64,000 nt of DNA from contig OZ219786.1 of assembly GCA_964291285.2 (NCBI GenBank), positions 160,001-224,000 on the forward strand. The letters run 5' to 3'. Every line of letters starts with the position of its first letter. The stretch's first letter is position 1. This stretch comes from Alphaproteobacteria bacterium. Lineage in GTDB: Bacteria; Pseudomonadota; Alphaproteobacteria; Bin95. Below are positions 3 to 54,415 of the stretch, piece after piece. The notes below the pieces were generated by a model. It was given only the letters and a program-made list of their open reading frames with translations. It did not search any database and was not told the DNA's origin. Both the position numbers and the translations under genes were made by a program.

Positions 3-683
3 GACCGGCTGGATGAAATCGGCGCCGTCGCCCGCGCCCATGACATCTTCCTCCATGTCGATGCCGCATGGGCCGGCAGCGCGCTCATCTGCGAGGAGCA
101 CCGCTGGATGCTGCAGGGCATCGAGGCCGTGGACAGCCTCGTCTTCAATCCGCACAAATGGCTGCTCACCAATTTCGACTGCTCGGCGCATTTCGTTCGC
201 GATCCGGACGCGCTGATCCGCACCTTTTCGATCCTCCCCGCCTATCTGCAAAGCCGGGAGGGGGATGCCGTCATTGACTACCGCGACTGGAGCGTGCCGC
301 TCGGCCGGCGTTTCCGCGCGCTCAAGCTCTGGTTCGTGCTGCGCAGCTACGGCCTTGCCGGCCTGCGCGACCTGGTGCGGCGGCATATCGCGCTGGCCGA
401 ATGGCTCGAAGGCGAGATCGCAGCGCATCCGGATTTCGAGCTTATGGCCCCCAGATCCTTGGCATTGCTGAATTTCCGCTACGCCCCTCAGGGGAACGCA
501 GCGCTTGACGACCTCAACGAGCGGCTGCTGCACGTGATCAATGACGAAGGGCGCATCTACCTGACGCAAGGCAGCGTGAACGGGGCCTATGCGATTCGCG
601 TCTCCATCGGACAGACCGGCACCGAGCGCATCCATGTCGAGCAGGCGTGGGAGGCAATCCGCTCCGCCGCCGCCCGACTTTAG
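3..683 (+). CDS. PLP-dependent (group II) aromatic-L-amino-acid decarboxylase family protein, 5' end outside window
   Basis: Frame is open from base 3 with HVDAAWAG, the PLP-lysine motif FNPHKWL and DYRDWSVPLGRRFRALKLW. Confidence 0.9.
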   Translation, partial: DRLDEIGAVARAHDIFLHVDAAWAGSALICEEHRWMLQGIEAVDSLVFNPHKWLLTNFDCSAHFVRDPDALIRTFSILPAYLQSREGDAVIDYRDWSVPLGRRFRALKLWFVLRSYGLAGLRDLVRRHIALAEWLEGEIAAHPDFELMAPRSLALLNFRYAPQGNAALDDLNERLLHVINDEGRIYLTQGSVNGAYAIRVSIGQTGTERIHVEQAWEAIRSAAARL

Positions 684-689
684 GCATTG

Positions 690-1185
690 CCGGCAGGATG
701 CTTCAAATATGAAAAAAATCTAATTAATCTGATTTTTGTTTCATATTTGATCTTGACATCTGGCGGATTGTGGTATGATGGTCCCCAAGGAAGCGGAATC
801 CGGAGCCGCGTCCCCGGGTGCCGCGCGGCCGAGCGGCGCCGGTTTCTGAAAACCCGTGAGAAGCCGACGGGAGACGTGCGTCCTGCGTCTCGCGCGCGCA
901 ATCAGGCGCGCGAACCGCGCCGGCGCCGACACGCGCACAGGCGCCCGCGCAGGATACGCGCGGAAAAGGGACCCGCTCCCCGTCGGAGCAAGGAGGAACG
1001 ATGAAGGCAACCCACCCTCGCCCCGGTCATGTCGAACCGCTGCCCCTTTTTCTCCTCGCACCCGGCAGGAGGTCAAAAAGCGGAGAGCCTTATGCCCGAA
1101 CCGGCTACAGAACATACGCCCCGCGCATGGGAAACATGACAGATCATGACATCCCATGACATACCGCGCGGGGTCTGCGCCGGCG
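690..1185 (+). repeat. Dispersed ~500-bp non-coding element, copy 1
   Basis: Shares identical 20-bp (894-913) and 23-bp (940-962) blocks, a TTGACA and terminal CATGAC repeats with the reverse complement of 17340-17875. Ends approximate. Confidence 0.8.
753..779 (+). promoter_or_regulatory. Putative sigma70-type promoter
   Basis: TTGACA at 753-758 and TGgTATGAT (extended -10) at 771-779. The 15-bp spacer is short. Preceded by an AT-rich inverted repeat at 703-750. Confidence 0.5.
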
Positions 1186-1190
1186 GGAGC

Positions 1191-1415
1191 CTATCCGGCT
1201 CTGGCGATCACGAACCGATAGGGCGCGTCCGCCTCCTGGGCTTCAACGATGTCATGGCCTTCCGTGGCGCAGAAATGGCGCATGTCGATGGGCGAGGCCG
1301 GGTCGTCGGTCAGCACCTCCAGCCGGTCGCCCGGCGCCATCGCCCTGAGGCGCTTGCGGGCCCGCAGGACCGGAATCGGACAGCGCAGGCCCGTGGCGTC
1401 GAGCAGGTCGGCCAT
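1191..1415 (-). CDS. tusA: TusA/SirA family sulfur carrier
   Basis: 74 aa; LDATGLRCPIP (CPxP) motif and DDP..PIDM. Confidence 0.9.
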   Translation of the reverse strand: MADLLDATGLRCPIPVLRARKRLRAMAPGDRLEVLTDDPASPIDMRHFCATEGHDIVEAQEADAPYRFVIARAG

Positions 1416-1418
1416 GGG

Positions 1419-2285
1419 TCAGAAGGCGTTGAGCGGGATCTTGAGATAGGCGCGGCCGTTGCTTTCCGGCTCCGGCAGGTCGCCGCCGCGCATGTTCACC
1501 TGGATCGAAGGCAGCAGCAGCGCCGGCACATCCAGCACCTTGTCCCGCTCGGTGCGCATGGCGACGAAGGCCTGCTCGTCGATGCCGTCGCGCACATGCC
1601 GGTTCGCCCTGCGCTCCTCTTCCACCGTCGTCTCCCACGCGACCTCCCGTCCGCCCGGCGCGTAGTCGTGCCCGACGAAGACGCGCGTTTCGGGCGGCAG
1701 CGACAGGATGCGGCGCGCCGAGCGGTAGAGCGCCGCCGCGTCGCCGCCGGGAAAGTCGCAGCGCGCGGTGCCGAAATCCGGCATGAAGACGGTGTCGCCC
1801 GTGAACGCGGCATCGCCGATGACATAGGTGACGCAGGCAGGCGTGTGGCCCGGCGTGTGCAGCACCCGCGCCGGCACCCGCCCCAGCCGGAACTGCTCCT
1901 CGTCGTCGAACAGCCGGTCGAACTGAGAGCCGTCGGTCAGGAATTCCGGCGGCAGATTGTAGATGTCCTTGAAGACCGCCTGCACATCGACGATGTGGCC
2001 GCCGATGGCCGTCCTGCCTCCGAGCGCCTGCTTCAGGAAGGCGCCGGCGCTCAGATGGTCGGCATGCACATGGGTTTCGAGGATCCACTCAACGCTGAGG
2101 CCGCGCTCGCGAACCCGCGCGACAAGCCGCTCGGCGAACGCCGTTTCGGTCCGTCCGGAGTAGATGTCGTAGTCGAGCACCGGATCGACGACGGCGGCCC
2201 GGCCGGTCCCGGGGCAGGCCACGATATAGCTCACCGTGGAGCTCGGCTCGTGAAACAGCGCCTCAACCAGCGGTCGTTCGGCCAT
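1419..2285 (-). CDS. MBL-fold persulfide dioxygenase (ETHE1/Blh-like)
   Basis: ETHVHADHLS, HTPGHTPAC, GDTVFMPDFGTARCDFPGG, C-terminal YLKIPLN. Confidence 0.88.
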   Translation of the reverse strand: MAERPLVEALFHEPSSTVSYIVACPGTGRAAVVDPVLDYDIYSGRTETAFAERLVARVRERGLSVEWILETHVHADHLSAGAFLKQALGGRTAIGGHIVDVQAVFKDIYNLPPEFLTDGSQFDRLFDDEEQFRLGRVPARVLHTPGHTPACVTYVIGDAAFTGDTVFMPDFGTARCDFPGGDAAALYRSARRILSLPPETRVFVGHDYAPGGREVAWETTVEEERRANRHVRDGIDEQAFVAMRTERDKVLDVPALLLPSIQVNMRGGDLPEPESNGRAYLKIPLNAF

Positions 2286-2349
2286 GAGTCGCCCTCCCTC
2301 GCGGGGAAACGCTATCCTATACCGGATTCACAAACGGGAGAACGCATCC

Positions 2350-3102
2350 GTGAACGCGCCGCTGATCGACTACCACTCCGAGGACGGTATCGCAACGATT
2401 ACCCTCAACCGGCCCGACAAGATGAATGCCCTGTCGAACGGGCTCGTCGCCGAGCTGATCCAGGCCTTCGAGCGCCTGCAGGACAGCGATGACCGCGTCG
2501 CGATCCTGACCGGCGCGGGCGAGCGCGCCTTCTCGGTCGGCGCAGACCTGCGCGACCCGCCCCGCGACCCGGAGCTCTGGGAGTGCATGCCGGGCGTCGG
2601 CGTGATGGTGGACAAGCCGATCATCGCCGCCGTGCACGGCTACTGCGTGGGCGGCGCCTTCTGCCTGGTGGAGTTCTGCGACCTTGCCGTGGCCGACGAA
2701 ACCGCGGACTTCTTCTATCCCGAGGCGCAGATCGGGTTCTGCGGCGGGCTCATCGCCGGCCTCGCGGCGCGCATACCGCACAAGCTCGCGATGGAGTTCA
2801 TGATGACCGGAAAGCATTTCGACGGCGAACGCGCCGCCGAGATCGGCATGGTCAACCGTGCCGTGCCGCGGGGCGAGCTGATGGCCGCGGCAAGGGACTA
2901 CGCGACCATCCTCAGGGACAGCGCGCCGCTCGTGCTGCGAACGGTCAAGCGTTTCGTGCGCGATACCGTGGTCGCGCGCGGCCCCTCGGAACTCCAGGCG
3001 CTGGCCCGGCGGGAGTTGCTCTCGATCAGCCGCAGCGAGGACCAGAAGGAAGGCGGGCGGGCGTTCCGCGAGAAGCGCAAGCCCATGTTCACCGGCCGAT
3101 GA
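2350..3102 (+). CDS. Enoyl-CoA hydratase/isomerase
   Basis: ITLNRPDKMNAL, AFSVGADL, KPIIAAVHGYCVGG, EKRKPMFTGR; GTG start after GGAG. Confidence 0.9.
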   Translation: MNAPLIDYHSEDGIATITLNRPDKMNALSNGLVAELIQAFERLQDSDDRVAILTGAGERAFSVGADLRDPPRDPELWECMPGVGVMVDKPIIAAVHGYCVGGAFCLVEFCDLAVADETADFFYPEAQIGFCGGLIAGLAARIPHKLAMEFMMTGKHFDGERAAEIGMVNRAVPRGELMAAARDYATILRDSAPLVLRTVKRFVRDTVVARGPSELQALARRELLSISRSEDQKEGGRAFREKRKPMFTGR

Positions 3103-3887
3103 GCGCGGAAATCGTCTTCGAGGTCCGGGACAGGGTCGGCCTCATCCGCCTCAACCGGCCGGAAAAGCTCAACGCCTTCACCAACTCCATGCTCGAAGAC
3201 TGGCTGGAGGCGCTGGACGAGGCGGAAGCCCGCGAGGATGTGCGCTGCCTCGTCATCACCGGCACGGGGCGCGGCTTCACCACCGGCGGCGATGTCTCGA
3301 CGATGGGAGGCGGGCAGGACAACAGCCCGAAGACCACGAAGGACCGCATCTGGGAGACGATCCAGGCGGTGCCGAAGCGGCTCGCCGGCATGGACACGCC
3401 AACGATCGCCGCCGTCAACGGCGTCGCCACGGGCGGCGGAGTGGATGTCGCGCTCGCCTGCGACATAAGGGTCTGCGCCGCCTCGGCGCGTTTTGCCGAG
3501 ACCTATGCCCGGCTGGGCCTCATTCCCGGCGCGGGCGGGGCCTATTTCCTGCCCCGCGCCGTGGGCGTGGCCCGCGCGCTGGAGCTGCTCTGGACAGCGG
3601 AGTTCATCGACGCGGAGACGGCCGAGCGCATCGGGCTCGTGAACCATGTCTATCCGGACGAGAGCTTCCTCGACGACGCGATGGCGCTTGCCGGGCGCAT
3701 CGTTGCCGCCGCGCCGCTCTCGGTGCGCTACATCAAGCGGACGGTCTATCGCTCGCTCGCCACCGACATGCTCACCAGCTTCGACCTCGTGTCCTCGCAC
3801 ATGACAGTCGTGCGCTCGTCCGAGGACCATGTCGAGGCCGTCGCGGCTTTCCGCGAGAAACGCACGCCCGACTTCAAGGGCCGTTGA
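3099..3887 (+). CDS. Enoyl-CoA hydratase/isomerase
   Basis: LNRPEKLNA, GFTTGGD, AAVNGVATGGG, EKRTPDFKGR; ATGA overlap with the upstream gene. Confidence 0.9.
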   Translation: MSAEIVFEVRDRVGLIRLNRPEKLNAFTNSMLEDWLEALDEAEAREDVRCLVITGTGRGFTTGGDVSTMGGGQDNSPKTTKDRIWETIQAVPKRLAGMDTPTIAAVNGVATGGGVDVALACDIRVCAASARFAETYARLGLIPGAGGAYFLPRAVGVARALELLWTAEFIDAETAERIGLVNHVYPDESFLDDAMALAGRIVAAAPLSVRYIKRTVYRSLATDMLTSFDLVSSHMTVVRSSEDHVEAVAAFREKRTPDFKGR

Positions 3888-3919
3888 CATCCCCTGCCCC
3901 GCCTGCGGCCGCACCGGAA

Positions 3920-3955
3920 CATGACACTTCATGACATCCCATGACACTTCATGAC
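3920..3955 (+). repeat. Four CATGAC units at exact 10-bp spacing
   Basis: CATGAC starts at 3920, 3930, 3940 and 3950; the same motif ends both copies of the dispersed element. Confidence 0.9.
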
Positions 3956-4033
3956 GCTCCTGCCCTTCCGGCGTTCTCCGGCGCGGGGCATATTGGCCGC
4001 TCCGATTGCCGCTTCCATCAGGAGACCTGAACC

Positions 4034-4741
4034 TTGCCCAAGTTAACCGAACAGGACCTTGCGGCGCTGCGCGCGCTCAACACGCCCACGATCTGCAACG
4101 CGCTGGAGGTCGTGGCCGGCAGCCGGCTGAACACCGGCTTCACCGTCGAGCCGCTGGTCTGCCCCTTCCCGGACCTACCGCCTATCGTCGGCTATGCGCG
4201 CACCGGCACCATACGCTCACAATTCCCGAGCGCCGTGGGCGGCAACGATGCCGCGAAGCTGCGCGTTTCCTACTACGACTATGTCGCCCATGGCGGCCCC
4301 GCGCCGCAGATCGTGGTGCTGCAGGACCTCGACGGCCCGCGCGCCGGCTTCGGCGCCTTCTGGGGCGAGGTGAACTCCAACATCCACAAGGCGCTCGGCT
4401 GCCTCGGCGTCGTCACGGACGGCTGCATCCGGGACATTCCGGACTGGGCGGACGGCTTCCAGGCCGTGGCCGGCTCGATCAAGCCCGCGCACGCCCATGT
4501 GCATGTGGTCGATTTCGGCGGACAGATCAGCGTCGCCGGCATGGTCGTCAACAGCGGCGACCTCGTGCATGCCGACCAGCACGGCGCGGCGGTCATTCCC
4601 ATCGACCAGGCGCGCGAGGTGCCGAAGGCGGCGGCCGAGGTAGCGGCCAAGGAAAAGGTCGTGCTGGACGTCTGCCGCGGCTCCGGTTTCACCTTCGAGA
4701 AGCTGAAACGCGCCATGCTCGGCCCCGAAGACGTGCACTGA
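4034..4741 (+). CDS. RraA-like / HMG aldolase family protein
   Basis: TPTICNALE, AFWGEVN, GVVTDGCIRD, GDLVHADQHGAAVIP; TTG start after GGAG. Confidence 0.85.
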   Translation: MPKLTEQDLAALRALNTPTICNALEVVAGSRLNTGFTVEPLVCPFPDLPPIVGYARTGTIRSQFPSAVGGNDAAKLRVSYYDYVAHGGPAPQIVVLQDLDGPRAGFGAFWGEVNSNIHKALGCLGVVTDGCIRDIPDWADGFQAVAGSIKPAHAHVHVVDFGGQISVAGMVVNSGDLVHADQHGAAVIPIDQAREVPKAAAEVAAKEKVVLDVCRGSGFTFEKLKRAMLGPEDVH

Positions 4742-4753
4742 CACTTCTGCGCC

Positions 4754-5272
4754 ATGCGTCTCCCCCTCCTGCCGCTGGCCGCGATGGCCGGGCTGGTCGC
4801 GCTCTCCAACGTGCTCGTCCAGTATCCGATCAATGACTGGCTGACCTGGGGCGCGTTCACCTATCCGGTCTGCTTCCTGGTCACGGACCTCACCAACCGG
4901 ATGCACGGCGCGGCGACGGCGCGGCGGGTCGTCTATGTCGGCTTCGCCGCGGCCGTCGTGCTGTCCATCGTTTTGGCGACGCCGCGAATCGCGGTCGCCT
5001 CGGGCCTGGCCTTCCTGGTCGCCCAGCTTCTGGACGTGACGGTGTTCGACCGGATGCGGCAGCGGGCATGGTGGCAGGCGCCGCTGGTCTCCTCGATGCT
5101 CGGCTCGGCCGTCGATACGGCGCTGTTCTTCTCGATCGCCTTCTACGGCACCGGGATTCCCTGGGTCACGCTCGGGATCGGGGACTTCCTCTGGAAGGTC
5201 GCCTTCGCGCTCGCCATGCTGATTCCGTTCCGGCTGCTGATGCCGGCGACGGCCGGGCGGGCCGCTCAGTAG
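4754..5272 (+). CDS. VUT family (YhhQ-like) queuosine-precursor transporter
   Basis: Hydrophobic; SNVLVQ, TWGAFTYP..FLVTDL, QLLDV.VF, DTALFFSIAF. Confidence 0.8.
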   Translation: MRLPLLPLAAMAGLVALSNVLVQYPINDWLTWGAFTYPVCFLVTDLTNRMHGAATARRVVYVGFAAAVVLSIVLATPRIAVASGLAFLVAQLLDVTVFDRMRQRAWWQAPLVSSMLGSAVDTALFFSIAFYGTGIPWVTLGIGDFLWKVAFALAMLIPFRLLMPATAGRAAQ

Positions 5273-6024
5273 TGGGAGACGCCGCCCTCCGCCGGGATCA
5301 CCGCGCCATTGACCATGCGGGACTCGTCCGACGCCAGGAAGAGCCCGATATTGGCGATGTCCTCCGGCGGACCGATGCTGAACGGATAGCTCTCGAAGAT
5401 CGCGAACGGCCCCTCCTGCCGGCGTTCCCCGTCCGGCCCCGGATAGCGCGCAAGGATGCGTTCGGTCAGGATGAGTCCGGGGCAGATGACATTGGCCCGC
5501 ACGCCCTCGTCGGAATAGGAGCCGGCGAGCGAGCGGGTGAAGGAGATCAGCCCGCCCTTCGCCGCGGAATAGACATGGCTGGGAACGAAACCGCGCAAAG
5601 CTGCGACGGAGGAGATGTTGATGACGGCCCCGCCGCCGCCCGCGATCATGTGGGGCACGACATGGCGGCACATCAGCATCGGGCCCTTGAGGTCGAGCGG
5701 GATCGTGCGGTCCCAGACGGCGAGATCGACCTCGTGGATCTTCGAGTCCTCGGGAACCGAGCCGCCCGCGCAGTTGAACAGGATGTCGATACGCCCGAAC
5801 TCGGCCATCGCCGCCGCCGCGCAGGCCGCTGCAGAAGCGTCATCGGTCACATCGGTGCGGTGGAAGACGGCGCCGTTCTCGGCTGCCGTTGCGGACCCGG
5901 CCGCTTCGTTGATTTCCGCCACCATCACCTTCGCGCCCTCGCGAATGAAAATGCCCGTGGCCGCCCTGGCGATTCCGGTTCCAGCCCCGGTAATCACCGC
6001 GGTCTTGCCTTCGAGCCGTCCCAT
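5266..6024 (-). CDS. SDR family oxidoreductase (paralog B)
   Basis: TGAGTGIA, NCAG, YSAAK catalytic motif. Confidence 0.92.
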   Translation of the reverse strand: MGRLEGKTAVITGAGTGIARAATGIFIREGAKVMVAEINEAAGSATAAENGAVFHRTDVTDDASAAACAAAAMAEFGRIDILFNCAGGSVPEDSKIHEVDLAVWDRTIPLDLKGPMLMCRHVVPHMIAGGGGAVINISSVAALRGFVPSHVYSAAKGGLISFTRSLAGSYSDEGVRANVICPGLILTERILARYPGPDGERRQEGPFAIFESYPFSIGPPEDIANIGLFLASDESRMVNGAVIPAEGGVSHY

Positions 6025-6054
6025 ATCCTGCACTCCTCTCCTTGCCGCCGCCCG

Positions 6055-6813
6055 TCAATAGGCGGAGATGCCGCCTTCTCCCGGGATGACCGCGCCGTTC
6101 ACCATGCGCGACTCGTCCGACGCCAGGAAGAGCGCGATATTGGCGATGTCCTCGGGCTGGCCGACGCCGAACGGATATTGTTCGAAGGTGCCGATCGAGC
6201 CTTCGCGCGGGCGCTCCTCGTTCGGCTGTCGGTAGCGGGCGCGGACGCGCTCGGTCAGGATGAGCCCCGGACAGATCACGTTGGCGCGCACGCCCCGGTC
6301 CGAATAGGAGCCGGCCAGCGAGCGCGTGAAGGAGATCAGCCCGCCCTTCGCCGCCGAATAGATATGCGCCGGATGGTTGCCGCGCAGCGCCACGACGGAA
6401 GAGACGTTGACGACGGCGCCGCCGCCGCCCGCGATCATGTGCGGCACGACATGGCGGCACATCAGCATCGGGCCCTTGAGATCGAGCGGGATCGTGCGGT
6501 CCCAGACACCGAGATCGACATCATGGATCGCCGTGTCCTCGATCACCGACCCACCGGCGCAGTTGAACAGAATGTCTATGCGACCGAACTCGGCCATCGC
6601 CGCCGCCGCGCAGGCGGCCGCCGAGGCATCGTCAGTCACGTCGGTGCGGTGGAAGGCGGCGCCCGTCTCCGCCGCCGCAGCAGCGCCCGCCGCCTCGTCG
6701 ATCTCCGCCACCATCACCTTCGCGCCTTCGCGGATGAAGATTCCGGTGGCTGCCCTGGCGATCCCGGATCCGGCGCCGGTAATGATCGCAGTCTTGCCTT
6801 CCAGGCGTCCCAT
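6055..6813 (-). CDS. SDR family oxidoreductase (paralog A)
   Basis: TGAGSGIA, YSAAK; near-identical to the adjacent SDR. Confidence 0.92.
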   Translation of the reverse strand: MGRLEGKTAIITGAGSGIARAATGIFIREGAKVMVAEIDEAAGAAAAAETGAAFHRTDVTDDASAAACAAAAMAEFGRIDILFNCAGGSVIEDTAIHDVDLGVWDRTIPLDLKGPMLMCRHVVPHMIAGGGGAVVNVSSVVALRGNHPAHIYSAAKGGLISFTRSLAGSYSDRGVRANVICPGLILTERVRARYRQPNEERPREGSIGTFEQYPFGVGQPEDIANIALFLASDESRMVNGAVIPGEGGISAY

Positions 6814-6853
6814 CTCTTGCTTTCCTCCCGATCCGGGCGCTAGGGTCGCGCCC

Positions 6854-8500
6854 ATGGCACAAGAGCTTATCAACCCCTGCGGCATCTACCAGCGCAATAG
6901 CGGCGCGCTGGCGCCGCGGCGATCCCTGGAAGACGTTAAGACCGTCGGCCTGTTCTCCAATCTCAAGGCGAATGCAGACCTTTACCTGGAAGAGGTGTCG
7001 CACCGGTTGAAGGCGCGCTACCCGCATCTGGAGTTCGAACTCTTCCAGAAGATTGCGAGCGAGCCCGCAAATTTCTCCCAGCCCTGGCTTGACCGGGTCC
7101 ACGCCGTGGCCGCCGCTTTCGGGGACTGAGGTTCCTGCACGTCGTGGTGTATCCATGACGCGATCAAGCTTGAAGAACGCGGCATTCCCGTGGCCGTCAC
7201 CTGCACCGACGAGTTCTTTGCCCTTGGAAAAGCGGAAGCCGAATGCCTCGGCATGGCGGGCCTGCCGATTGCGGTCGTCCCGCATCCGGTGGCGAAACTG
7301 CCTCCGGTCGGTGTGGCGGAAATCGCCGATGAGGCGATAGACCAGATCGTCCACATGCTGGAAGCAGACGCGGCGGCACTCGCGGAGGAATGCCGCAACC
7401 GTCCCCTGCCGAAGCGCGGCCGGATGCGCTACCGCTCGCTGTTCGAGGGCGACTTCAACGCGCCCGGCGCGCCGGAGCGGATTTCAGGTCCTGACTCGCC
7501 GGAGGCGCTGAACCGCGTCTTCTACCAGCGCGGCTGGACTGACGGCCTGCCTTTCGTTCCGCCGACGCCCGACCGCTGGGAGGCGATGCTGGGCGGACGC
7601 GATCCCGATGAGGAAATCGGGTTCATCGAACCGCGCCTCGGCCTCGCGACGGTCGGCAAGGTCGCCGCCAATGCCGTTATGGCCGGGGCGACGCCCGCCA
7701 TGATGCCGGTCGTCCTTGCCGCGACGCGTGCGATGACCGCCGAGCGGCTGAACCTGAAGGCGCTCCAGTCCACGACCCACCCCTGCGGCCTGCTGACCGT
7801 CGTGCATGGTCCGATGGCGGAAGACCTAGATATCGCCTCCGGCACGAACTGCATGGGCCAGGGCGCCCACGCCAATGCCGCGATCGGGCGCGCCGTCCGG
7901 CTCGTACTCACCAATATCGGCGGCGCCCAGCCCGGCGTGCTCGACCGCGCGACGATGGGCACGCCCGCCAAATACAGCTACTGCTTCGCGGAGAACGGCG
8001 AGGCCAATCCCTGGGCGCCTTTCCAGGCCGAGCGGGGCTTCGGCGCGGAGGAAAACGCAGTCACGGTCTGCGGCGTCGAGGGCCCACACAATGTCAACGA
8101 TCACTACAGCGAAACGGCCGAAGACGTTCTGCTGACGATCTGCGGCACCATGGCGACGCCGGGCTGCAACAACTCCTATTTCCACGGCGAATATCTCGTG
8201 GTGATCGGCCCGGAACACGCCGAGGTGATCGCGCGCGAGGGCTGGTCGAAGGAAGATGTCGAGCGCTTCATCATCGAGCGCGCGATCATTCCGCGCTGGC
8301 ATGTCGGCAAGGCGCAGATGGCGCTCTACCGCCAGCAGGTGCCGGAGCGGTTCGTCGGCCCGGACGGCAGGGACGGCGTGCGCATCGTCAGCGAGCGGGA
8401 GCAACTCATGGTCATGGTCGCCGGCGGGGCGGGACGCCACTCCTGCGTCATCCCGTCCTTCGGCAGTACGCTCTCCGTAACCGAGGCGATCCGGGACTAG
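6854..8500 (+). CDS. UGSC-family selenoprotein fused to a GWTDGLP-type C-terminal domain; Sec at TGA 7127-7129
   Basis: ORFs ending at 7129 and starting at 7190 are in one frame. Read-through gives AFGD-U-GSCTSWCIHD. Hairpin at 7140-7160. Confidence 0.82.
7140..7160 (+). promoter_or_regulatory. Putative bacterial SECIS hairpin
   Basis: CGUCGUGG-UGUAU-CCAUGACG; 8-bp stem, loop begins 18 nt after the UGA and has G then U. Confidence 0.7.
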
Positions 8501-8504
8501 CCGG

Positions 8505-9485
8505 TCATCCTCTCAGGTCGGCGAGGAGCGGCATGACGTCGCCGGCGAAGCGTTCGATCTGCTCCGAACGCCGGTCGTAAGGACCGACAAGATCGACAAC
8601 GATGTGCCTTGCGCCTGCCCGGTGGAAGTCGCGGATTCGCCCGGCAACCTGCTTGCTGGTGCCGAGCGCAGCGTAGCGCGCCGCCGCCTTGCGGAAGTCC
8701 ATCGCATAGCGGAGGGACAGCGACTCGGTAGCGGTGTCGAGGGCGCGCTCATAGTTGTCGTCGATGCGGGTGAACAGCAGGTGACCGGTGCCGAACGGCA
8801 CATCGCCGCGCCCCGCCGCCTCGGCCGCCTGCCCTATCTCGCCCAGGGCCTGCGCGAACATATCCGGCGTCACGACATATGAGACATAGCCATTCGCGAG
8901 CCTGCCCGCGCGCCGCAGTGCCGGCGAACGCCGTCCGCCGCACCAGATCGGCGGGCCGCCCGATTGCCTGGGCGGCGGCAGCATCGGCACATCCTCGAAG
9001 GAGAAATGGCGCCCGCAATAGCTTGCCGGCCTTCCTGACCAAAGCGCGCGGACCGCCTCGATACTCTCGGTCAGCCGGCGGCCCCGTTCCTCCCGGGACA
9101 CGCCGCATACCTCGTATTCCTTCGGGAACTCGCCCCCGACGCCGACGCCGAAGATGAAACGCCCTTCGCTCAGATGGTCGAGCGTGGCCGTCATCTTTGC
9201 CACCGGCCCCGGATGGCGCAGCGGCAGCAGATAGACGCCTGTGCCGAAGACCAGCCGCCGGCTCGCTACCGCCGCCTGCGCGATCATCAGCAGAGGATCG
9301 AGGAACGGAATGGCGAAGGAAACATGGTCGCCCAGCCAGATTTCGTCGAAGCCCTTTCTGTCCACATCCTCGACAAAGGCCACGAGGTCGTCGATGCGCG
9401 GAAGCCAGGGGCCGGTTTCGAAATCCCCCTGGCGATGGATCGTCTGGATACCGAGTTTCAGTCCCTCTTCAAGCCGGAGCGCCAT
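8505..9485 (-). CDS. LLM-class flavin-dependent oxidoreductase
   Basis: GFDEIWLGDH, LPLRHP, ATLDHLSEGRFIFGVGVG, PPIWCGG. Confidence 0.9.
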   Translation of the reverse strand: MALRLEEGLKLGIQTIHRQGDFETGPWLPRIDDLVAFVEDVDRKGFDEIWLGDHVSFAIPFLDPLLMIAQAAVASRRLVFGTGVYLLPLRHPGPVAKMTATLDHLSEGRFIFGVGVGGEFPKEYEVCGVSREERGRRLTESIEAVRALWSGRPASYCGRHFSFEDVPMLPPPRQSGGPPIWCGGRRSPALRRAGRLANGYVSYVVTPDMFAQALGEIGQAAEAAGRGDVPFGTGHLLFTRIDDNYERALDTATESLSLRYAMDFRKAAARYAALGTSKQVAGRIRDFHRAGARHIVVDLVGPYDRRSEQIERFAGDVMPLLADLRG

Positions 9486-9551
9486 GCGCCTCCCTCCCCG
9501 CGGCTGGCGTTTTGCGGTATAGAGCGTCATCCGCAGGGGAGACGCAATGCG

Positions 9552-10874
9552 ATGAGCGCCTTTGCATCGCTCGTGGACGACCGCGCCGGCGACGGCGTCT
9601 TCAGGGTGGACCGGGCCGTCTATACAGACCCGGAGGTTTTTGCCGCCGAGATCGAGACGATCTTCGAGGGCAACTGGATCTATCTGGCGCATGAGAGCCA
9701 GATTGCGGCGCCCGGCGACTACCTCGCCGTGTGGATGGGCCGCCAGCCGGTGATCGTCAACCGGCGAGCCGACGGCTCCGTCGGCGCCATGCTGAACGCC
9801 TGCGCCCATCGCGGCGCGCGCCTGACGCCCACCCGGCAGGGCAAGGCGACGACGTTCGTGTGCCGCTATCACGGCTGGTGCTACGACACGTTCGGCGCCT
9901 GCACGAAGATCAAGGACGAGCGCACCTCCGCACTGCCGCCCGGCTCGTCGCGTGCGGATTTCGGCCTCAAGACGGTGCCTTTGGTCGAGAGCTACAAGGG
10001 CTTCATCTTCGGCTCGCTCAACCCCGACGCGCCGCCGCTCGCCGAGCATCTGGGCGAGGCGCTTCCGGTCATCGACCTGCTCGCGGACCAGTCGCCCGAC
10101 GGCATGGAGGTCGTTCCGGGACAGGCAAGCTACGTCGTGGACGGAAACTGGAAGCTCCAGACCGAAAACGGCGTCGACGGCTACCACGTCTCCACCGTGC
10201 ACCGGAACTTCGTCACCACCATTCAGCGCCGCGACCTGCAATCAGGCGCGACCGGCGCCGGGCGGACGGACAACAGCCGCTTCATGGGCGCGACCCGCAA
10301 CGGCTGCTACGACCTCGGCAATGGCCACAACCTGATCTGGACCGAGCGCGGGATGCCGGAATCGGCGCCGCTCTGGGAAGCGCGCGAGCGCCTGCTGCCG
10401 CTTGTCGGCGAGCGCAGATGGACCTGGATGTGTGCGCGGGGGCGCAACCTGCTGCTCTTCCCGAACGTCTTCCTCATGGACCAGTCGTCAACCCAGATCC
10501 GCGTCATCCGCCCGATTTCGCCGAGCCGCACGGAAGTCACGGTCCATTGTATCGCGCCGAAGGGCGAGAGCCGCGCCGCCCGTGCGGCAAGATTGTCGAA
10601 GTTCCGCGACTTCTTCCTGATGAGCGGGCTCGCGACTCCGGACGATTCGGCGGCTCTGGAGGACACCCAGGCCGGATGCGAGGGCCGGCTCGACCGCTGG
10701 AACGACCTGTCGCGGGGCATTGCCGCCATGCAGCATGGCGGCGACGACGCTGCCTCCGATCTCGGCATACAGCCGGTTTCGACCAGCCCGCGTTGGGACC
10801 ACGAAACGCTTTACCACGGGCAATACCGCCAGTGGCGCCGCCTCATGGCGCGCGCCGACAGGGCTGCCGCGTGA
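9552..10874 (+). CDS. Rieske ring-hydroxylating oxygenase alpha subunit (benzoate/anthranilate-like)
   Basis: NACAHRG...CRYHGW Rieske ligands; NWKLQTENGVDGYHVSTVH iron site. Confidence 0.92.
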   Translation: MSAFASLVDDRAGDGVFRVDRAVYTDPEVFAAEIETIFEGNWIYLAHESQIAAPGDYLAVWMGRQPVIVNRRADGSVGAMLNACAHRGARLTPTRQGKATTFVCRYHGWCYDTFGACTKIKDERTSALPPGSSRADFGLKTVPLVESYKGFIFGSLNPDAPPLAEHLGEALPVIDLLADQSPDGMEVVPGQASYVVDGNWKLQTENGVDGYHVSTVHRNFVTTIQRRDLQSGATGAGRTDNSRFMGATRNGCYDLGNGHNLIWTERGMPESAPLWEARERLLPLVGERRWTWMCARGRNLLLFPNVFLMDQSSTQIRVIRPISPSRTEVTVHCIAPKGESRAARAARLSKFRDFFLMSGLATPDDSAALEDTQAGCEGRLDRWNDLSRGIAAMQHGGDDAASDLGIQPVSTSPRWDHETLYHGQYRQWRRLMARADRAAA

Positions 10875-11371
10875 AGATCGACCCGGACCTGCAGCTTGCC
10901 ATCGAGCGCGTAATCCATCTCGACGCATGGCTCCTGGACGAACGACGCTTCGAGGAATGGCTGGCGCTGTTCACCGAGGATGTGGCCTTCTGGGTGCCCG
11001 CCTGGACCGGCGAGGAAACGCTTGCCCGCGATCCGGAGACCGAACTCGCGCTTATCTACATCCAGGGCAAGGCAGGCCTCGACGACCGGGTGTTCCGCAT
11101 CGGCACGCGCGACAGTTACGCCTCCCTGCCCCTGCCGCGCTCATGCCATGTGGTCGGCAATGTGCTGATCCTTTCCGCCGGCGACAGCGAAGTCGAGGCC
11201 GTCGCGTCCTGGACGGTGCATCAATATGCCTCGCTCAAGGGCGCGCGCGTGCATGGGGGGCGTTACCGCTACCGGCTCCGCCTCGAGGACGGCGAATGGC
11301 GGATCGCCGCCAAGACCGTGATTTTCCTGAACGATGGAGTCGATGTGGCTCTGGATATCTACAATGTCTGA
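10871..11371 (+). CDS. Ring-hydroxylating oxygenase beta subunit
   Basis: LLDERRFEEWLALF, LDDRVFRI, C-terminal LDIYNV; GTGA overlap. Confidence 0.9.
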   Translation: MKIDPDLQLAIERVIHLDAWLLDERRFEEWLALFTEDVAFWVPAWTGEETLARDPETELALIYIQGKAGLDDRVFRIGTRDSYASLPLPRSCHVVGNVLILSAGDSEVEAVASWTVHQYASLKGARVHGGRYRYRLRLEDGEWRIAAKTVIFLNDGVDVALDIYNV

Positions 11372-11936
11372 ACCGAACGCATCGCCGAAGGGCCTTCGCT
11401 TTGCGGTGGACTACGGCCCGCTGCTGGTCTTCTTCGTCACTTACTACGCAGCCGGCATCATGTGGGCTACGGCGGCGATCATGGCGGCGACATCCGTCAT
11501 GCTGGCCGTCTCCTGGTATTTCGAACGGCGCCTGGCGCCCCTGCCGCTGGTGACGGCGGGGCTGGTCGCGGTGTTCGGCGGGCTGACCCTGCTGCTCGCG
11601 GACGAGACCTTCATCAAGATGAAGCCGACCATCGTGAAGGCGTTCATCGCCGCCGTGCTGCTCGGCGGCCTCGCCTTTGGAAAGCCGCTGCTGAAGCCGC
11701 TGTTCGGCGCGGTCTGGAAGATCGATGACGACGGATGGCGCAAGCTGACCTTGCGTTTCGGGCTGTTCTTCATTGCCATGGCGCTGCTGAACGAGATCGT
11801 CTGGCGCACGCAGTCCACGGATTTCTGGGTCAACTACAAGCTGTTCGGCACGATCGGCCTCACATTCGCCTTCTCCCTGACTCAGATACCGGTATTCCGG
11901 CGTCACTGGGTCGAGGAACCCGCGGAGAGCGGCTAG
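11364..11936 (+). CDS. ispZ: Inner membrane protein YciB/IspZ
   Basis: DYGPLLVFF, FGGLTL, TFIKMKPTI, LNEIVWR, WVNYKLFG. Confidence 0.9.
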   Translation: MSEPNASPKGLRFAVDYGPLLVFFVTYYAAGIMWATAAIMAATSVMLAVSWYFERRLAPLPLVTAGLVAVFGGLTLLLADETFIKMKPTIVKAFIAAVLLGGLAFGKPLLKPLFGAVWKIDDDGWRKLTLRFGLFFIAMALLNEIVWRTQSTDFWVNYKLFGTIGLTFAFSLTQIPVFRRHWVEEPAESG

Positions 11937-11947
11937 CCGTCCCGATT

Positions 11948-13279
11948 TCAGGCGGCCCTCTGTGCTGTCTCAAGTAAATCGTTAACAACACGCTCTAAAT
12001 GATTGAATGTGTTGCATTCACGCAGGAGGTCACAATAGGGCCGGTAGCGGCGCATCTCGCTGTCTCCCGTACCCCAGAGCGGCGGCGGCTCCGGGTTGAG
12101 CCAGATGAGCCGCTTGCAGCGTTCGTGCATTTCCTTCAGGTATTCGGCCTTCGGATCGGTGTTGTTCGACCGCGCGTCGCCGAGAATGATGATCGTGGTG
12201 TTCCGGTCCACGTCGGCCAGGAAGCTCTCGCGGAAATTGGTGAGCGATTCGCCGTAGTCCGTCGGCATGTAGCCGACCTTCTGCATCACCTTGTCGGCAG
12301 CCTCGTCCGCCACGTTGTCCTTGAAGTGCTCGGAGACTTCGATGAGGTAGCCGGAAAAGGCGAAGCTGCGAATGTCGTGCAGGAGTTCGTGCAACTCATA
12401 GAGGAATTGCAACAGGAACCGCGCGACGCTCGCCACGGAGCCGCTGACATCGCAGATCGCCATGACGCGCGGGCGGTCGAGCTTGCGCTTCTTCCACTCC
12501 AGCTCGAACAGCACGCCGTCATTGCCGTAATTGCGGCGCATGGTGCGGCGGATGTCCAGCTGGCCCCGGTTCTTCATCTTGCGCCGCCGGGAATGGAGCG
12601 CCACCAGCCGGCGGCAGATCTTCTCCACGATGCGGCGCATCTGCTCGCGGTCGCGGCGGTCCAGATTGCCGAGCCGGGAACGCCGCAGCCGGTCCTCGCG
12701 AAGCTCCTGCGAAGTCGCCGCGCCCTGGAGCGAAAGCTGTTGCTCGACATAGTTGCGCACCTGCTCGAACAGCCAGGCCCGGCTTTCCTGGAGGGCCTGC
12801 CCGGCGCTGCCGCCGCCGCCCTGCCCGCCCATTGCCTGGATCTGCGCATCCACGCCCTCGACGCCCATCTGCTGGAGCACGCGCTGGGTATAGAGGCCGC
12901 GCTGGGTGAAGAAGCGGATGTTCTCGACGCCGACCTCCACTGCCGCCTCCTGCATGGCGAGCGCAAGCGCGGCGCGGTCGCCGGCTTCCAGCATGGCCAG
13001 CAGGTCTCCGCCGTCCGCCTGCCCGTTCTCCTCCGTCTCCTCCCCGTCCCGGCGGTCGTGGAAGCTTTCGAAGGCGAAAAATTCGTCGAAGATACGGGTG
13101 AAGCCGGTCTTTTCCTCGGGCGTCTTGGCCAGCGCCATGGCGAGGGCGTCGTGCAGGCTTTGCCGGTCCGACCAGCCCATCAGCCGCGCCGTTTCCATTG
13201 CATCCAGCGTCTCGGCAACCGAAACGCGGATATCGGCCCCGCGCAGAGCGGACAGGAAATTGGTGAAGGTGCGTTCCAT
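11948..13279 (-). CDS. VWA-domain CoxE-like protein
   Basis: LDIRRTMRRN, MIDAS motif DVSGS, ILGDARSN, WLNPEP. Confidence 0.88.
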   Translation of the reverse strand: MERTFTNFLSALRGADIRVSVAETLDAMETARLMGWSDRQSLHDALAMALAKTPEEKTGFTRIFDEFFAFESFHDRRDGEETEENGQADGGDLLAMLEAGDRAALALAMQEAAVEVGVENIRFFTQRGLYTQRVLQQMGVEGVDAQIQAMGGQGGGGSAGQALQESRAWLFEQVRNYVEQQLSLQGAATSQELREDRLRRSRLGNLDRRDREQMRRIVEKICRRLVALHSRRRKMKNRGQLDIRRTMRRNYGNDGVLFELEWKKRKLDRPRVMAICDVSGSVASVARFLLQFLYELHELLHDIRSFAFSGYLIEVSEHFKDNVADEAADKVMQKVGYMPTDYGESLTNFRESFLADVDRNTTIIILGDARSNNTDPKAEYLKEMHERCKRLIWLNPEPPPLWGTGDSEMRRYRPYCDLLRECNTFNHLERVVNDLLETAQRAA

Positions 13280-14235
13280 CAGGCGCGCGCGCCGTCAGCC
13301 TTCTTCGCCTGGCGGGTGAACCCGTAGAGTTCCGCATCGACCGACTGGATGTCCTCCTCGAATTTGAGGAAGACATTGAGCGTTTCCCGAACCATGTCCG
13401 CTTCGAGTTCGTCGGCATGCAGCAGCAGCAGCACGCGCGCCCAGTCGATGGATTCGCTGACCGAGGGCTGCTTCTTCAGGTCCAGATCGCGTACCTGCTG
13501 CACGAAGGAAACGAGCTGGTACTTCAGGTTGCGGGGAATCTCCGGAATGCGGGCCTGGATGATCTCCCGTTCGAGCGGCGCATCGGGAAACGGCACATAG
13601 AGATGCAGGCAGCGCCGCTTGAGCGCGTCGCTCATCTCGCGGGTGTTGTTGGAGGTCAGGAACACCACCGGACGCCGTCCGGCCTTGATCGTCCCGAGTT
13701 CCGGGATCGAGACCTGGAATTCGGACAGGATTTCCAGAAGGAAAGCCTCGAACTCGTGGTCCGACTTGTCCACCTCGTCGATCAGCAGCACCGCGCCGCC
13801 GGGTTCCCGCAGCGCCTTGAGCAAGGGCCGCGGCGCAAGGAAGCGCTCGGAGAAGAACACATCCGCATGGGCATGCAGCCGGTCCATCGATTCCTTGAGC
13901 CCCTGGGCCTCGCCCAGCACCTCGCCCAGCTTGTCCCGCAGGATTTGCGTGTAGAGGAGCTGCTTGGCGTAGCGCCACTCGTAGAGCGCCTTGGCCTCGT
14001 CCAGGCCTTCGTAGCATTGCAGCCGGATGAGCGGCAGGTCGAGATAGGCGGCCGTCGTGTTCGCAAGCTCTGTCTTGCCGACGCCGGCGGGACCCTCGAC
14101 GAGAACCGGCTTGCCCAGATGCCCGGCCACATAGATCGCCGTTGCAATCTGGCGCGAACAGATATAGCCGAGTTCCGCATAGCCTTCGCGGACGCGCTCG
14201 ATGGACTCCAGCTTTTCCAGTTGTTCAGGGGTCAT
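13279..14235 (-). CDS. MoxR-family AAA+ ATPase (CoxD-like)
   Basis: EGPAGVGKT, RLQCYEGLD, LLIDEVDK, SDALKRRCLH. Confidence 0.92.
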   Translation of the reverse strand: MTPEQLEKLESIERVREGYAELGYICSRQIATAIYVAGHLGKPVLVEGPAGVGKTELANTTAAYLDLPLIRLQCYEGLDEAKALYEWRYAKQLLYTQILRDKLGEVLGEAQGLKESMDRLHAHADVFFSERFLAPRPLLKALREPGGAVLLIDEVDKSDHEFEAFLLEILSEFQVSIPELGTIKAGRRPVVFLTSNNTREMSDALKRRCLHLYVPFPDAPLEREIIQARIPEIPRNLKYQLVSFVQQVRDLDLKKQPSVSESIDWARVLLLLHADELEADMVRETLNVFLKFEEDIQSVDAELYGFTRQAKKADGARA

Positions 14236-14360
14236 ATCTTGTCCGGGGAATAGAGAGCGCCGGATATTGCCCGCTGCTTCCGGGCGACACAACCGAACCG
14301 GGTCGTGCGAAACCGCCGCATGAGCCTCCTCCATCCCCGCTCTGCACAGCGTCGATTTCA

Positions 14361-15233
14361 ATGAGGCCCGACCGGCCGGGGCGCGGCATTGCGTTGATGA
14401 TCGTGGCGATGGCAATGCTGGCGGGCCTCGACGCGGTCGGCAAGCTCGCGACCCAGACCTACCCCGTCTCGCAGGTGCTGTTCCTGCGGTTCGCCATGTT
14501 TCTCGCGTTTGCGCTGGCGCTTGCAGCCCGGCGCGGCGGTGTCGGTGCCATGCTGCGGACGCGGAACTGGCGCCTTCAACTGTTTCGGTCCTTCGTGCTG
14601 GCGTTCGAGATGTGGCTGTTCGTCTATGCGATCTCGAAGCTGCCGCTTGCGGACGTCCATGCGGTGGCAGCAGCCTCGCCGCTCATTGCCACCGCCCTCG
14701 CCGTTCCCCTGCTGGGCGAGCGCGTGGGCCCCTGGAGGTGGGCCGCGGTAATGCTGGGATTTGCCGGCACGCTGGTCGTCATTCGACCGGGCGTCGGCGT
14801 CTTCGACCCCCTGACCCTTCTGCCGCTCGTCGCTGCGTTCGGCTGGGCCTATTACCAGCTTCTGCTGCGCCGCCTGCGCGAAGACCGGCCCGAGACGACC
14901 CTGCTCTACACGGCCGTCATCGGGTTCGCCGTCTGGAGCGCGTCGGTTCCCTTCACCTGGGAGCCTCCCGACGCTTACGGATGGACGCTTCTCGGCGCGG
15001 TCGGGGTGCTCGGAATTGTCACGCACAGCCTGCTGATTCTGGCAGCGAGAGAGGCGCCGGCGGCCGTTTTGCAGCCGTTCAACTACACCCTGCTCGTCTG
15101 GGCGACGCTTTGGGGATGGGTCGGTTTCGGCGCCTTCCCCGATTCCTGGACGATCATCGGCGCCGCGGTGGTGGTCTCGAGCGGGCTCTTCGCCATCTGG
15201 CGCGAACACCGTCAGGTTCTGCACCGTCGGTAG
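14361..15233 (+). CDS. DMT/EamA family transporter
   Basis: About ten hydrophobic segments; LLGERVG..RW, QPFNY. Confidence 0.88.
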   Translation: MRPDRPGRGIALMIVAMAMLAGLDAVGKLATQTYPVSQVLFLRFAMFLAFALALAARRGGVGAMLRTRNWRLQLFRSFVLAFEMWLFVYAISKLPLADVHAVAAASPLIATALAVPLLGERVGPWRWAAVMLGFAGTLVVIRPGVGVFDPLTLLPLVAAFGWAYYQLLLRRLREDRPETTLLYTAVIGFAVWSASVPFTWEPPDAYGWTLLGAVGVLGIVTHSLLILAAREAPAAVLQPFNYTLLVWATLWGWVGFGAFPDSWTIIGAAVVVSSGLFAIWREHRQVLHRR

Positions 15234-15305
15234 CAGGTTGTCACTCCGGCCGCGCCGGGCATTTCGTGCATAATGCCGGCAACGCAAATCGGGGGATTGC
15301 TTTCC

Positions 15306-16316: not shown

Positions 16317-16319
16317 GCC

Positions 16320-17336: not shown

Positions 17337-17339
17337 CGG

Positions 17340-17875
17340 CCGCAGACACCGCCCGGGCTGCGGGCGTGTCATGGGATGTCATGTTTTGTCATGAGGACCG
17401 GCGGGACAGCGTTCGATATGTCATGAGATGTCATGTTCTGCATGCGCACGGCGCATGTCCCGTGGCCGGTTCCGGCATGAGGTAGTCGTTTCGGGCGGGG
17501 TTCCGGGTATTCCATCCCGTTTCCCGGCTTCCGCATCTTCGGCATGCGTTCCTCCTCTCGAACCGTCTTCGTTCCATTCTCTCCGCTGCCCGGTTCCTCC
17601 GTGCGGCGGGACCCTAATTCGCGCGTATCCTGCGCGGGCGCCCGCGCGCGTTTCGCGGCGGCGCGAATCGCGCGCCTGATTGCGCGCACAAGACGCGGGA
17701 CACACTTCTCCTGTCAGCTTCCCGGGTTCTTTTTTTCGCGCCGGCGCGAAACAGGAAAGAGAGCGGCCCCGCGCGGATGCCGCCTCCTTCCTCTGGCCTG
17801 ATCCGGGTATTCTATACTACCTGTCAAGCCCATAGTCAGAATTATTTCAAATCATAAGAACAAGAAATTTGTATC
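17340..17875 (-). repeat. Dispersed ~500-bp non-coding element, copy 2 (inverted)
   Basis: 17668-17687 and 17620-17642 are exact reverse complements of 894-913 and 940-962. TGTCAA at 17822. GTCATG at 17368, 17378, 17388, 17420 and 17430. Confidence 0.8.
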
Positions 17876-17970
17876 AGCCGTGCGCCGACTCATGGCCCGA
17901 GGCTCAAGGCCGGCGCCGCCGTTGCATGACGGGGCCGTCGCAGACCGCTTCAACCCCAACAGGTCATGCT

Positions 17971-54397: not shown

Positions 54398-54415
54398 ATC
54401 GCTCGAGGAGTAATA

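Follow-up and report, generated by a model that had tools for sequence, protein, structure and literature searches.

Two loci within a 64,000 bp stretch of contig OZ219786.1 (positions 160,001 to 224,000 of the forward strand; assembly GCA_964291285.2, Alphaproteobacteria bacterium), hereafter called the window, belong to an apparently undescribed repeat family of uncultured Alphaproteobacteria. Copy A was located at ~703-1164 on the forward strand and copy B at ~17368-17863 on the reverse strand. Members of the family are chromosomal cassettes of ~0.4-1.3 kb, and the order of their parts was common to all copies: an AT-rich head, a 5' hairpin (P1), a second GC hairpin with an A-run, a GC core, a Shine-Dalgarno-like site with an ATG, a cargo, a tail block and a series of CATGACAnnn units. 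The anatomy, copy number and cargo types of the family, its decay by deletion, the helical phasing of its terminal repeats and its block-wise conservation were all observed among the copies. Copies A and B were interpreted as cargo-less members of the family, in which a cis-acting leader is combined with an array of DNA sites and the whole is copied in trans; this reading is tentative, and was judged to fall a little short of an even chance.

The original prediction, made from the letters of the window alone, had described a second copy that was both inverted and diverged, and this was borne out by MAFFT alignment of 680-1200 (+) with 17320-17900 (-), which gave 75% mean column identity over 597 columns, the identity being concentrated in blocks. 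Two of these blocks were counted over the 64 kb with up to three mismatches. The 20-mer had exactly two sites (894-913, +, and 17668-17687, -; 0.10 expected), as did the 23-mer (940-962, +, and 17620-17642, -; 0.01 expected), and in both cases two or more sites were obtained in 0 of 100 shuffles. The shorter motifs that had been named alongside them, i.e., CTTGACA, GAAGCyGACrGGAGA, the CATGAC repeats and GTCTGCG, were each found in both copies. The pattern CATGAC-N4-CATGAC (up to one mismatch) had 8 matches in the window, against 0.25 expected, and this number was reached in 0 of 100 shuffles. Peaks of AT skew (+0.31 and -0.37) coincided with the two copies. Strong AT skew at 14.4-15.3 kb was traced to the antisense strand of what is probably a coding region, and a third element there was ruled out.

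Size and distribution of the family

Genome contigs were scanned with a pattern of two short core motifs separated by a variable gap, which returned at least 95 loci (denoted by L numbers below); all copy counts are lower bounds. Fourteen of the 95 listed loci were chance matches in unrelated taxa, where the sequence between the motifs was unrelated. Among the matches listed, at least 81 further true copies were present beyond the window, in nine alphaproteobacterial metagenome-assembled genomes, with at least 32, 17, 16, 10, 2, 1, 1, 1 and 1 copies per assembly; the element was therefore multicopy, as had been proposed from the two window copies. All but one of the 81 passed a composition filter, leaving 80; the diverged copy L080 was omitted from later counts, and was apparently orthologous to the L018/L020 locus, as judged by common neighbour genes. 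One of the nine assemblies carries the label Defluviicoccus sp., and the closest relative of the window among the matches listed was assembly JAJEIH01, with 91% identity over the syntenic stretch. Several contigs of the richest assembly start or stop inside the element, as would be expected because a recent repeat of high identity should break an assembly.

The invariance of CAATCAGG and GCAGGATACGC across these loci arose by construction, because the search pattern contained them; the unbiased observation is that both were identical between the two window copies. In the window, an nhmmer profile built from the family recovered copies A and B and no others.

The expectation that the element would match no known Rfam family was upheld by a search of the 64 kb window at gathering thresholds (Rfam 15, 0 matches), which was the only Rfam run covering copy B; in E-value mode, positions 600-1300 gave only 4 matches, all with E of at least 3.5 and far below gathering. 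Copy A had no blastn match among 72,556 plasmids, copy B had none among 50,697 phage records, and tblastn of both cargo proteins against the phage collection likewise produced no match, by which a plasmid or phage origin was ruled out. A literature search with the core sequences turned up only unrelated work on human telomeres.

Conservation, decay and cargo

The best evidence for selection on head, core and tail in place came from orthologous pairs of loci. In such pairs the flanks were 90-99% identical and the head hexamers, core and tail approximately as conserved as the flanking genes, but the interior of the element had decayed, diverging to 10-75% between the conserved blocks at four orthologous loci. 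At L023/L070, for example, the flanks were 91-99% identical and the element only 56-75%, with indels, while the -35, the -10, the core and the array were almost unchanged, and the same pattern was seen at L026/L060 and L018/L020. The block-wise selection suggested by the original prediction thus reappeared in four orthologous pairs, where head hexamers, core and tail were near-identical despite decay of the interior. Copy B itself was present at the same site in L001, which is syntenic with window positions 17614-22142 at 91% identity.

The copies also appear to be mobile, because near-identical copies occur in unrelated flanks: L057 and L064 were 97.1% identical from -187 to +753, and their flanks were unrelated. 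In L039 and L040, which lie ~5 kb apart on one contig, heads and cores were 100% identical from -168 to +208. Five near-identical copies were used to define the ends of the element, the left beginning GCGAAACATGAA and the right terminating in CATGACGCTYCC. Between these ends there was no inverted match, and the 8-10 nt flanking the five copies on both sides had nothing in common; the absence of terminal inverted repeats (TIR) and of a target-site duplication (TSD), asserted from the window alone, was therefore confirmed at ends set by near-identical copies, and a classical insertion sequence (IS) or miniature inverted-repeat transposable element (MITE) was ruled out. The many dispersed copies, the longer gene-bearing relatives and the deletion forms were MITE-like; the open reading frames (ORFs) were not recognisable transposases.

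The variable middle of the cassette contained a 209-aa gene (type 1), a ~326-aa gene (type 2), or nothing. A gene is present in intact members, so the family cannot be called non-coding by nature. A census by tblastn on 82 copies found the full type-1 gene in 5 copies (e.g., L064, 2330-2959, -), with a 195-aa variant in L066, and pieces of it in 8 others, 4 of which were truncated by the locus end. The full type-2 gene, an ORF of ~300-330 aa, was found in a single copy (L069, 73-1053, -); elsewhere it had lost residues 22-228 through internal deletion (L046), was interrupted by IS21 (L041) or was cut by the contig end (L021). There was no similarity to either cargo protein in 65 of the 82 copies, 19 of which were cut early by the locus end. 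At the orthologous locus L018/L020 the element measured 589 bp in the former and 1214 bp in the latter, the difference being an internal deletion. Internal deletion was in this way shown, at the level of sequence, to convert gene-bearing types into the gene-less form.

Copy A is such a derivative of the 209-aa type, since it was 78-87% similar to type-1 copies at the DNA level from ~705 to ~1025 (i.e., including the first eight codons) and had no similarity thereafter; for its 52-codon ORF, tblastn detected no protein similarity at E <= 1e-3. Copy B is a gene-less form.

Type 1 had 175 database relatives, all of them unnamed or hypothetical, and many of these were situated on tiny contigs or occurred several per contig. 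It had no reportable match in Pfam, NCBIfam or PADLOC, only weak matches (E ~1e-3) to PHROGs families of unknown function, and Atlas matches of 0.85 or less that were without a family; no longer fused forms were found. Its AlphaFold2 model (predicted local distance difference test 75) consisted of a helical hairpin, an acidic linker and two strand-strand-helix repeats, and had no match in the PDB at E <= 0.001 (best E = 1.1). Type 2 had at least 326 relatives with PF03592, and the protein of L041 matched this Pfam family, Terminase_2, with E = 3.9e-13. The N-terminus of type 2 was well modelled, the remainder being of low confidence, and in Foldseek it matched the DNA-binding domain of the SF6 small terminase (4zc3, template-modelling (TM) score 0.85, root-mean-square deviation 1.4 A, 42% identity; 4zc3/2cmp, TM 0.85-0.86), while the full-length SF6 protein 3zqq was matched with a probability of 0.98. 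This domain belongs to the type-2 relatives only, and is encoded by neither window copy.

Other repeats were found inside some copies. L012 contained an IS110-family transposase (3422-4846, -), and L041 an IS21-like pair (3-1783, +), the latter being called from the reading of ORFs without Pfam confirmation. A short, GC-rich palindromic unit, CTCCCCTCCCGC...GCGGGAGGGG, was repeated within the interiors of L009, L039, L043 and L072, and may represent another family of smaller repeats lodged inside the cassettes. A CTCCT...AGGAG hairpin at ~1040-1075 of the window, within copy A, is related to this palindromic unit.

Anatomy of the cassette and the two window copies

The head is AT-rich and contains TTGTTC, GAAATAATTCT-type motifs and a TTGAC[ACT] hexamer; it is followed by a leader of ~220 nt that contains the GC core. 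In copy A, near-identical paralogues with unrelated flanks placed the left boundary at ~-194 from the core start. The AT-rich left end occupied 703-752 (+), with the left terminus motif AAATATGAA at 705-713, and the promoter-like hexamers lay at 753-779 (+), where TTGACA (753-758) and TATGAT (774-779) were separated by 15 nt. The 5' hairpin P1 (GAAGCGG...CCGCGTC) was found at 790-812 (+) and the GC core at 860-962 (+), comprising GAAGCCGACGGGAGA (860-874), GTGCGTCC (876-883), the 20-mer and the 23-mer. A hairpin, GCTCC-CCGTC-GGAGC, and the Shine-Dalgarno-like AAGGAGG (990-996) followed at 975-996 (+). The sole terminator-like match near copy A was antisense (992-972, -), and corresponds to this GCTCC...GGAGC inverted repeat, which immediately precedes the Shine-Dalgarno-like site. 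The 52-codon ORF at 1001-1159 (+) is a stump of the 209-aa type-1 gene (MKATHPRP... versus MTATDPRP...), overlapping the conserved tail block with its ATGCCCGAACCGGC ... CATACGCCCCGCGCATG hairpin (1092-1129, +), and three CATGACAnnn units with an exact 10-bp period (1135-1164, +) formed the right end of the element.

Copy B had the same parts on the reverse strand. Its head extended over 17822-17863 (-), with TTGTTC at 17858-17863, GAAATAATTCT at 17838-17848 and TTGACA at 17822-17827; the place homologous to the -10 (17799-17804, -) read GGATCA, which is not a good -10. P1 was situated at 17759-17787 (-), the GC core, containing the 20-mer and the 23-mer, at 17620-17721 (-), and the tail block, with a CATGCGC-CGT-GCGCATG hairpin, at 17441-17478 (-). 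The decamer array (17368-17439, -) was in two parts, with two units at 17420-17439 and three at 17368-17397 around a GC-rich spacer; these clusters are 32 bp apart from start to start, and are therefore still in helical phase.

Two features attributed to the element from the window alone were only partly sustained. The 'promoter-like' head did contain the hexamers, but with a 15-nt spacer in copy A and without a promoter being called in either copy; the hexamers of copy A were missed by the consensus scan because the spacer is shorter than 16 nt. Likewise, the statement that there was no credible ORF overlooked AAGGAGG-N4-ATG and the 52-codon ORF in copy A, although the short ORFs of both copies are probably not genes.

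The units of the tail, CATGACAnnn at a 10-bp period, were preceded by a block with a CATGC...GCATG hairpin. Spacing between the starts of successive CATGAC motifs was 10 nt in 145 cases, 20-22 nt in 9, 31-35 nt in 19 and 42-43 nt in 6, and in many copies, copy B among them, a GC-rich spacer separated two units from the three that followed. The array was on the same strand as the core in 61 of 64 copies with at least 450 nt downstream, and lay 180-2400 nt past the core. Within 423 kb, 70 of 72 arrays fell no more than 2.6 kb downstream of a core; since only two lacked an upstream core, the array is part of the element, and the notion that it was a common target that existed beforehand was ruled out. 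A strict 10-bp period has no meaning in single-stranded RNA. The spacings correspond to whole helical turns, which suggests that the tail is a site in double-stranded DNA, rather than an RNA motif, at which an oligomeric protein would read one face of the helix. All three frames also receive TGA and ATG from the units, and the stop of each cargo ORF lies inside the array.

At 3920-3959 (+) there was a solo array, made up of four CATGACnnnn units with CATGACGCTCC at its end and without head, core or tail block. It starts 32 nt past the stop of an enoyl-coenzyme A (CoA) hydratase gene. The terminal unit CATGACGCTCC also ends full-length elements, and the solo array may be a remnant or a minimal form of the element, or else a target site.

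The neighbours of the cassettes are ordinary metabolic genes. Both window copies sit between convergent genes, as originally described, but this did not extend to the family: among 43 elements with both neighbours called, the arrangement was (+,-) in 15, (+,+) in 14, (-,+) in 10 and (-,-) in 4, and such mixed orientations ruled out a convergent-neighbour rule. Clustering of 236 flanking ORFs, with Pfam run on 13 of them (one from each of 11 recurrent clusters plus two others), showed that the recurrent flanking ORFs were acyl-CoA synthetases, short-chain dehydrogenases, TauD, CoA-transferase and similar. Within the window, the two inverted copies bracket ~16 kb of metabolic genes (1191-17336) that showed no compositional sign of an island and included tandem paralogue pairs of enoyl-CoA hydratases, short-chain dehydrogenases and luciferase-like monooxygenases. 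An IS256-family element (19386-20839; Transposase_mut, ORF 19526-20767) lies ~1.5 kb from copy B, and because it is missing from L001, which is 91% identical, it is a lineage-specific insertion. Further along, a cluster of mobile elements at 45352-63697 contained an IS66 transposase, a Transposase_29 protein and IS630-like DDE_3/helix-turn-helix genes, and there were four tyrosine integrases with an Arm-DNA-binding domain (48925-50106, 50144-51346, 58547-59740 and 59458-60885). Rfam called no tRNA genes in the window.

Function, competing explanations and known systems

Transcription of the cassette, folding of its leader, recognition of its array and its spread are all inferred, and would proceed as follows under the preferred reading. 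The head would drive a sense transcript, the 5' part of which would fold into GC-rich stems and serve as a cis-acting leader of the cargo gene. The decamer array, with one helical turn per unit, would be bound on one face, as duplex DNA, by an oligomeric protein, for which the terminase-like protein from intact paralogues is the best candidate. Gene-less copies such as A and B would then depend on protein supplied in trans, because it is the intact paralogues that make this candidate reader. Cassettes would be copied to new intergenic sites by a trans-acting mechanism, and persist at the same locus for a long time thereafter.

Covariation evidence for an RNA structure, as raised by the original prediction, was weak: three compensatory pairs were identified, all in P1, while the core varied on one side only. 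Across 75 sequences, P1 showed double changes in 3 of 7 pairs, affecting 19 cells where shuffles had 9.3, a value reached by 0 of 500 shuffles; P1 is the only helix with compensatory changes. In the core helix GUGCGYC/GGCGCRC, predicted by RNAalifold, 511 cells comprised 392 Watson-Crick pairs, 114 G-U, 2 A-C and 3 others. C opposite G had often become U and G opposite C had almost never become A, and both core helices varied on one side only. In members with an extra hairpin of 20-35 nt inside the core helix, the local CGCGCGC/GCGCGCG pairing was impossible, while the long-range helix was still possible. The sense strand of 38 short forms, from -110 to the array, consisted of 9.9% T, 20.5% A, 37.0% G and 32.6% C. 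Because G-U greatly exceeded A-C and the sense strand is low in T, the core may act as a single strand in the sense orientation. An RNA fold of leader and core is compatible with these data.

Several observations weigh against the preferred reading. Paired cells amounted to 94.6%, compared with 93.8% in shuffles, measures based on pair count and pair type were not above shuffles (reached by 379 and 385 of 500), the GC-repeat core permits many alternative pairings, and the copies compared share ancestry. A consensus promoter scan of copies A and B returned 0 sites. In 36 of 80 copies TTGAC[ACT] was followed after 15 nt by TAnnAT, with 9 or more of the 12 positions matching, compared with 15 of 80 for a spacer of 16-18 nt, so that the commonest -35/-10 spacer was 15 nt, and neither copy B nor its orthologue had a -10 in the corresponding position. 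Both CAATCAGG and GCAGGATACGC had been fixed in the search pattern, and only two further copies without the exact pattern were recovered from the loci by nhmmer. The array was unchanged whichever cargo was present, and is therefore not tied to the terminase-like protein. The SF6 DNA-binding domain is reported to bind pac (packaging-site) DNA irrespective of its sequence (PMC4737164). Among the 236 clustered ORFs beside copies there was no recurrent gene for a large terminase, portal, capsid, relaxase or recombinase, and none of these was found near the window copies. Finally, queries of joined flanks from 49 copies produced no empty site, a result of little power because every locus had been selected for presence of the element.

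An alternative, which was considered unlikely, would make the cassette the source of a regulatory RNA of ~400 nt that acts in trans; its promoter, 5' domain and purine-rich body, full of GGA/CAGG motifs, would serve to titrate an RNA-binding protein much as Csr/Rsm sponges do, with the cargo ORFs being secondary. Like CsrB and RsmY/Z, the predicted RNA of the cassette is promoter-led, ~400 nt long and GGA-rich, and some of its GGA motifs fall in predicted hairpin loops, e.g., the loop of a CGCGC-AGGAUAC-GCGCG hairpin. In the 38 short forms there were 15.2 GGA per transcript of ~390 nt (576 in total, against 381 +/- 15 in dinucleotide shuffles, a 1.5-fold excess), AGGA occurred 170 times against 59 (2.9-fold) and CAGG 213 times against 62. 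The z-scores of these motifs are inflated, however, because the counts were drawn from copies that are related to one another. Retention of the head hexamers and core at orthologous loci after loss of the cargo would suit such an RNA, as would a sense strand with 9.9% U and the ratio of 114 G-U to 2 A-C. It would not explain the phased array of DNA type at the end of the cassette, given that a strict 10-bp period is meaningless in single-stranded RNA, nor the conserved proteins encoded by intact members; there was no match to CsrB, RsmX/Y/Z or any other Rfam family, and copy B is without a convincing -10.

Ranked below this, and thought rather improbable, was the possibility that copies A and B are inert, decaying remnants of a selfish mobile element, with block conservation resulting from recent copying or gene conversion. 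Decay is evident in the predominance of cargo-less copies (65 of 82 without similarity to either protein, 19 of them cut by the locus end), in interiors that hold indels and other insertion sequences (IS21 in L041, IS110 in L012), in the many contigs of one assembly that stop inside the element, and in the lack of a good -10 in copy B. Yet neutral decay would erode all parts, and at four orthologous loci the blocks were at least as conserved as the flanking genes while the interior had diverged; gene conversion limited to three short blocks in every lineage would be a less economical explanation than selection.

A small probability was assigned to the core being a site for a relaxase-type (HUH) nuclease, similar to an origin of transfer (oriT), such that the element is mobilised in trans or constitutes dispersed transfer origins. 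A Ti-plasmid oriT reportedly resembles both the MOBQ and MOBP types, to judge by the title of work by Cook and Farrand in 1992. On the + strand of the cassette, the conserved (A/G)GTGCG(C/T)CCT agrees with the MOBQ oriT consensus NWACCNNTAAGTGCGCCCTYNN at its nick core (PMC3832669); as in MOBQ origins of RSF1010 type, this 9-nt GTGCGCCCT is positioned a few bases 3' of an inverted repeat, being 4 nt past the proposed CCCGT...ACGGG with the predicted nick ~9 nt from the repeat. The - strand of the 23-mer contains the 8-nt TATCCTGC, which is the MOBP nick consensus (C/T)ATCCTG(C/T), described in PMC3772185 as normally following an inverted repeat; in the cassette, too, an inverted repeat is found a few bases 5' of TATCCTGC on that strand, as in MOBP origins of RP4/T-border type. 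Nick-based mobilisation would also leave neither TIR nor TSD. These matches are nonetheless only 8-9 nt in length and were spotted after the fact, the CAGGATA block was set by the search pattern, and both motifs are internal rather than at the element ends. The base just 3' of the would-be MOBQ nick was T in 32 of 75 copies, the cassettes are multicopy with no relaxase in cis, and no relaxase or type IV secretion gene was recurrent beside copies or present in the window. Tolerance of G-U on one strand also suits RNA better than a duplex site.

The last alternative, regarded as highly improbable, treats the element as a small-protein gene preceded by a long leader, the proteins being encoded by the short ORFs (52 codons in A and 58 in B) that follow conserved Shine-Dalgarno-like sites. 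In its favour, AAGGAGG-N4-ATG is present in A and GAGGAGG-N4-ATG in B, with comparable starts in many short forms, and all frames terminate in the array, where TGA is available to each of the three. Even so, the tail codons of A and B differed mostly non-synonymously, at first and second positions, the tail block was read in different frames by different copies (...HADHDIS and ...RMQNMTSHDI), and ORFs of 40-60 codons arise by chance at 67% G+C.

Among known systems, the phage pac region with its small-terminase gene (SPP1/SF6 G1P type) resembles the cassettes in several respects. The N-terminal domain of type 2 matches the DNA-binding domain of the SF6 small terminase, the gene lies between a promoter region and short direct repeats, and the repeats are helically phased and often split 2+3 by a spacer; direct repeats likewise occur in sets near the promoters and the start of the gene in SPP1 pac (PMC4737164). 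The cassettes differ in occurring in dozens per chromosome without a large terminase or phage gene nearby, in a type-2 protein of twice the usual length with long acidic regions of low confidence, and in repeats that also follow another gene or none; no phage record was matched.

Comparison with short intergenic repeats of MITE type, such as Correia/NEMIS, RIME and REPIN, is apt in that these too are short, multicopy, intergenic and mostly non-coding, include deletion derivatives of longer members and coincide with assembly breaks. Unlike them, the cassettes have no TIR or TSD, a promoter-like head of their own and two unlike ends, and remain at a locus across species with block-wise conservation. 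Like the bridge RNA of IS110 and the omega RNA of IscB/TnpB, the leader would be a structured non-coding RNA region, proximal to a promoter and 5' of an ORF, in a multicopy element without TIR or TSD, but the ORFs of the cassettes are neither recombinases nor RuvC nucleases, and no complementarity to the element ends was noticed. HEARO and related Rfam models did not match the cassette.

A bolder proposal, to which only a slim probability was given, would see the cassettes as dispersed chromosomal initiation sites for DNA mobilisation, combining a core of nick or cleavage type with a phased array that loads the terminase-like protein. If so, dozens of points on the chromosome, and the cassettes with them, would be preferentially packaged or transferred by a phage-like particle or a conjugative system, and selfish, hitch-hiking pac/oriT modules would also be driving gene transfer across the genome.

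In practical terms, the family breaks short-read assemblies of these genomes, and annotation should mask or model it. It would offer a candidate for a structured leader RNA that Rfam lacks, a protein family, type 1, that is new and has no recognisable fold, and a case in which the DNA-binding domain of a phage small terminase is used on the chromosome, in multiple copies, beside helically phased repeats. Should the preferred reading of cassettes with a cis-acting leader and a DNA-site array be correct, tens of self-promoted cassettes per genome would be distributed across an uncultured alphaproteobacterial lineage, and three short modules would be kept by selection even once the gene between them is lost. 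The family would thereby provide a testable system for how a repeat family persists in place, and for dispersed chromosomal entry points for DNA packaging or transfer.

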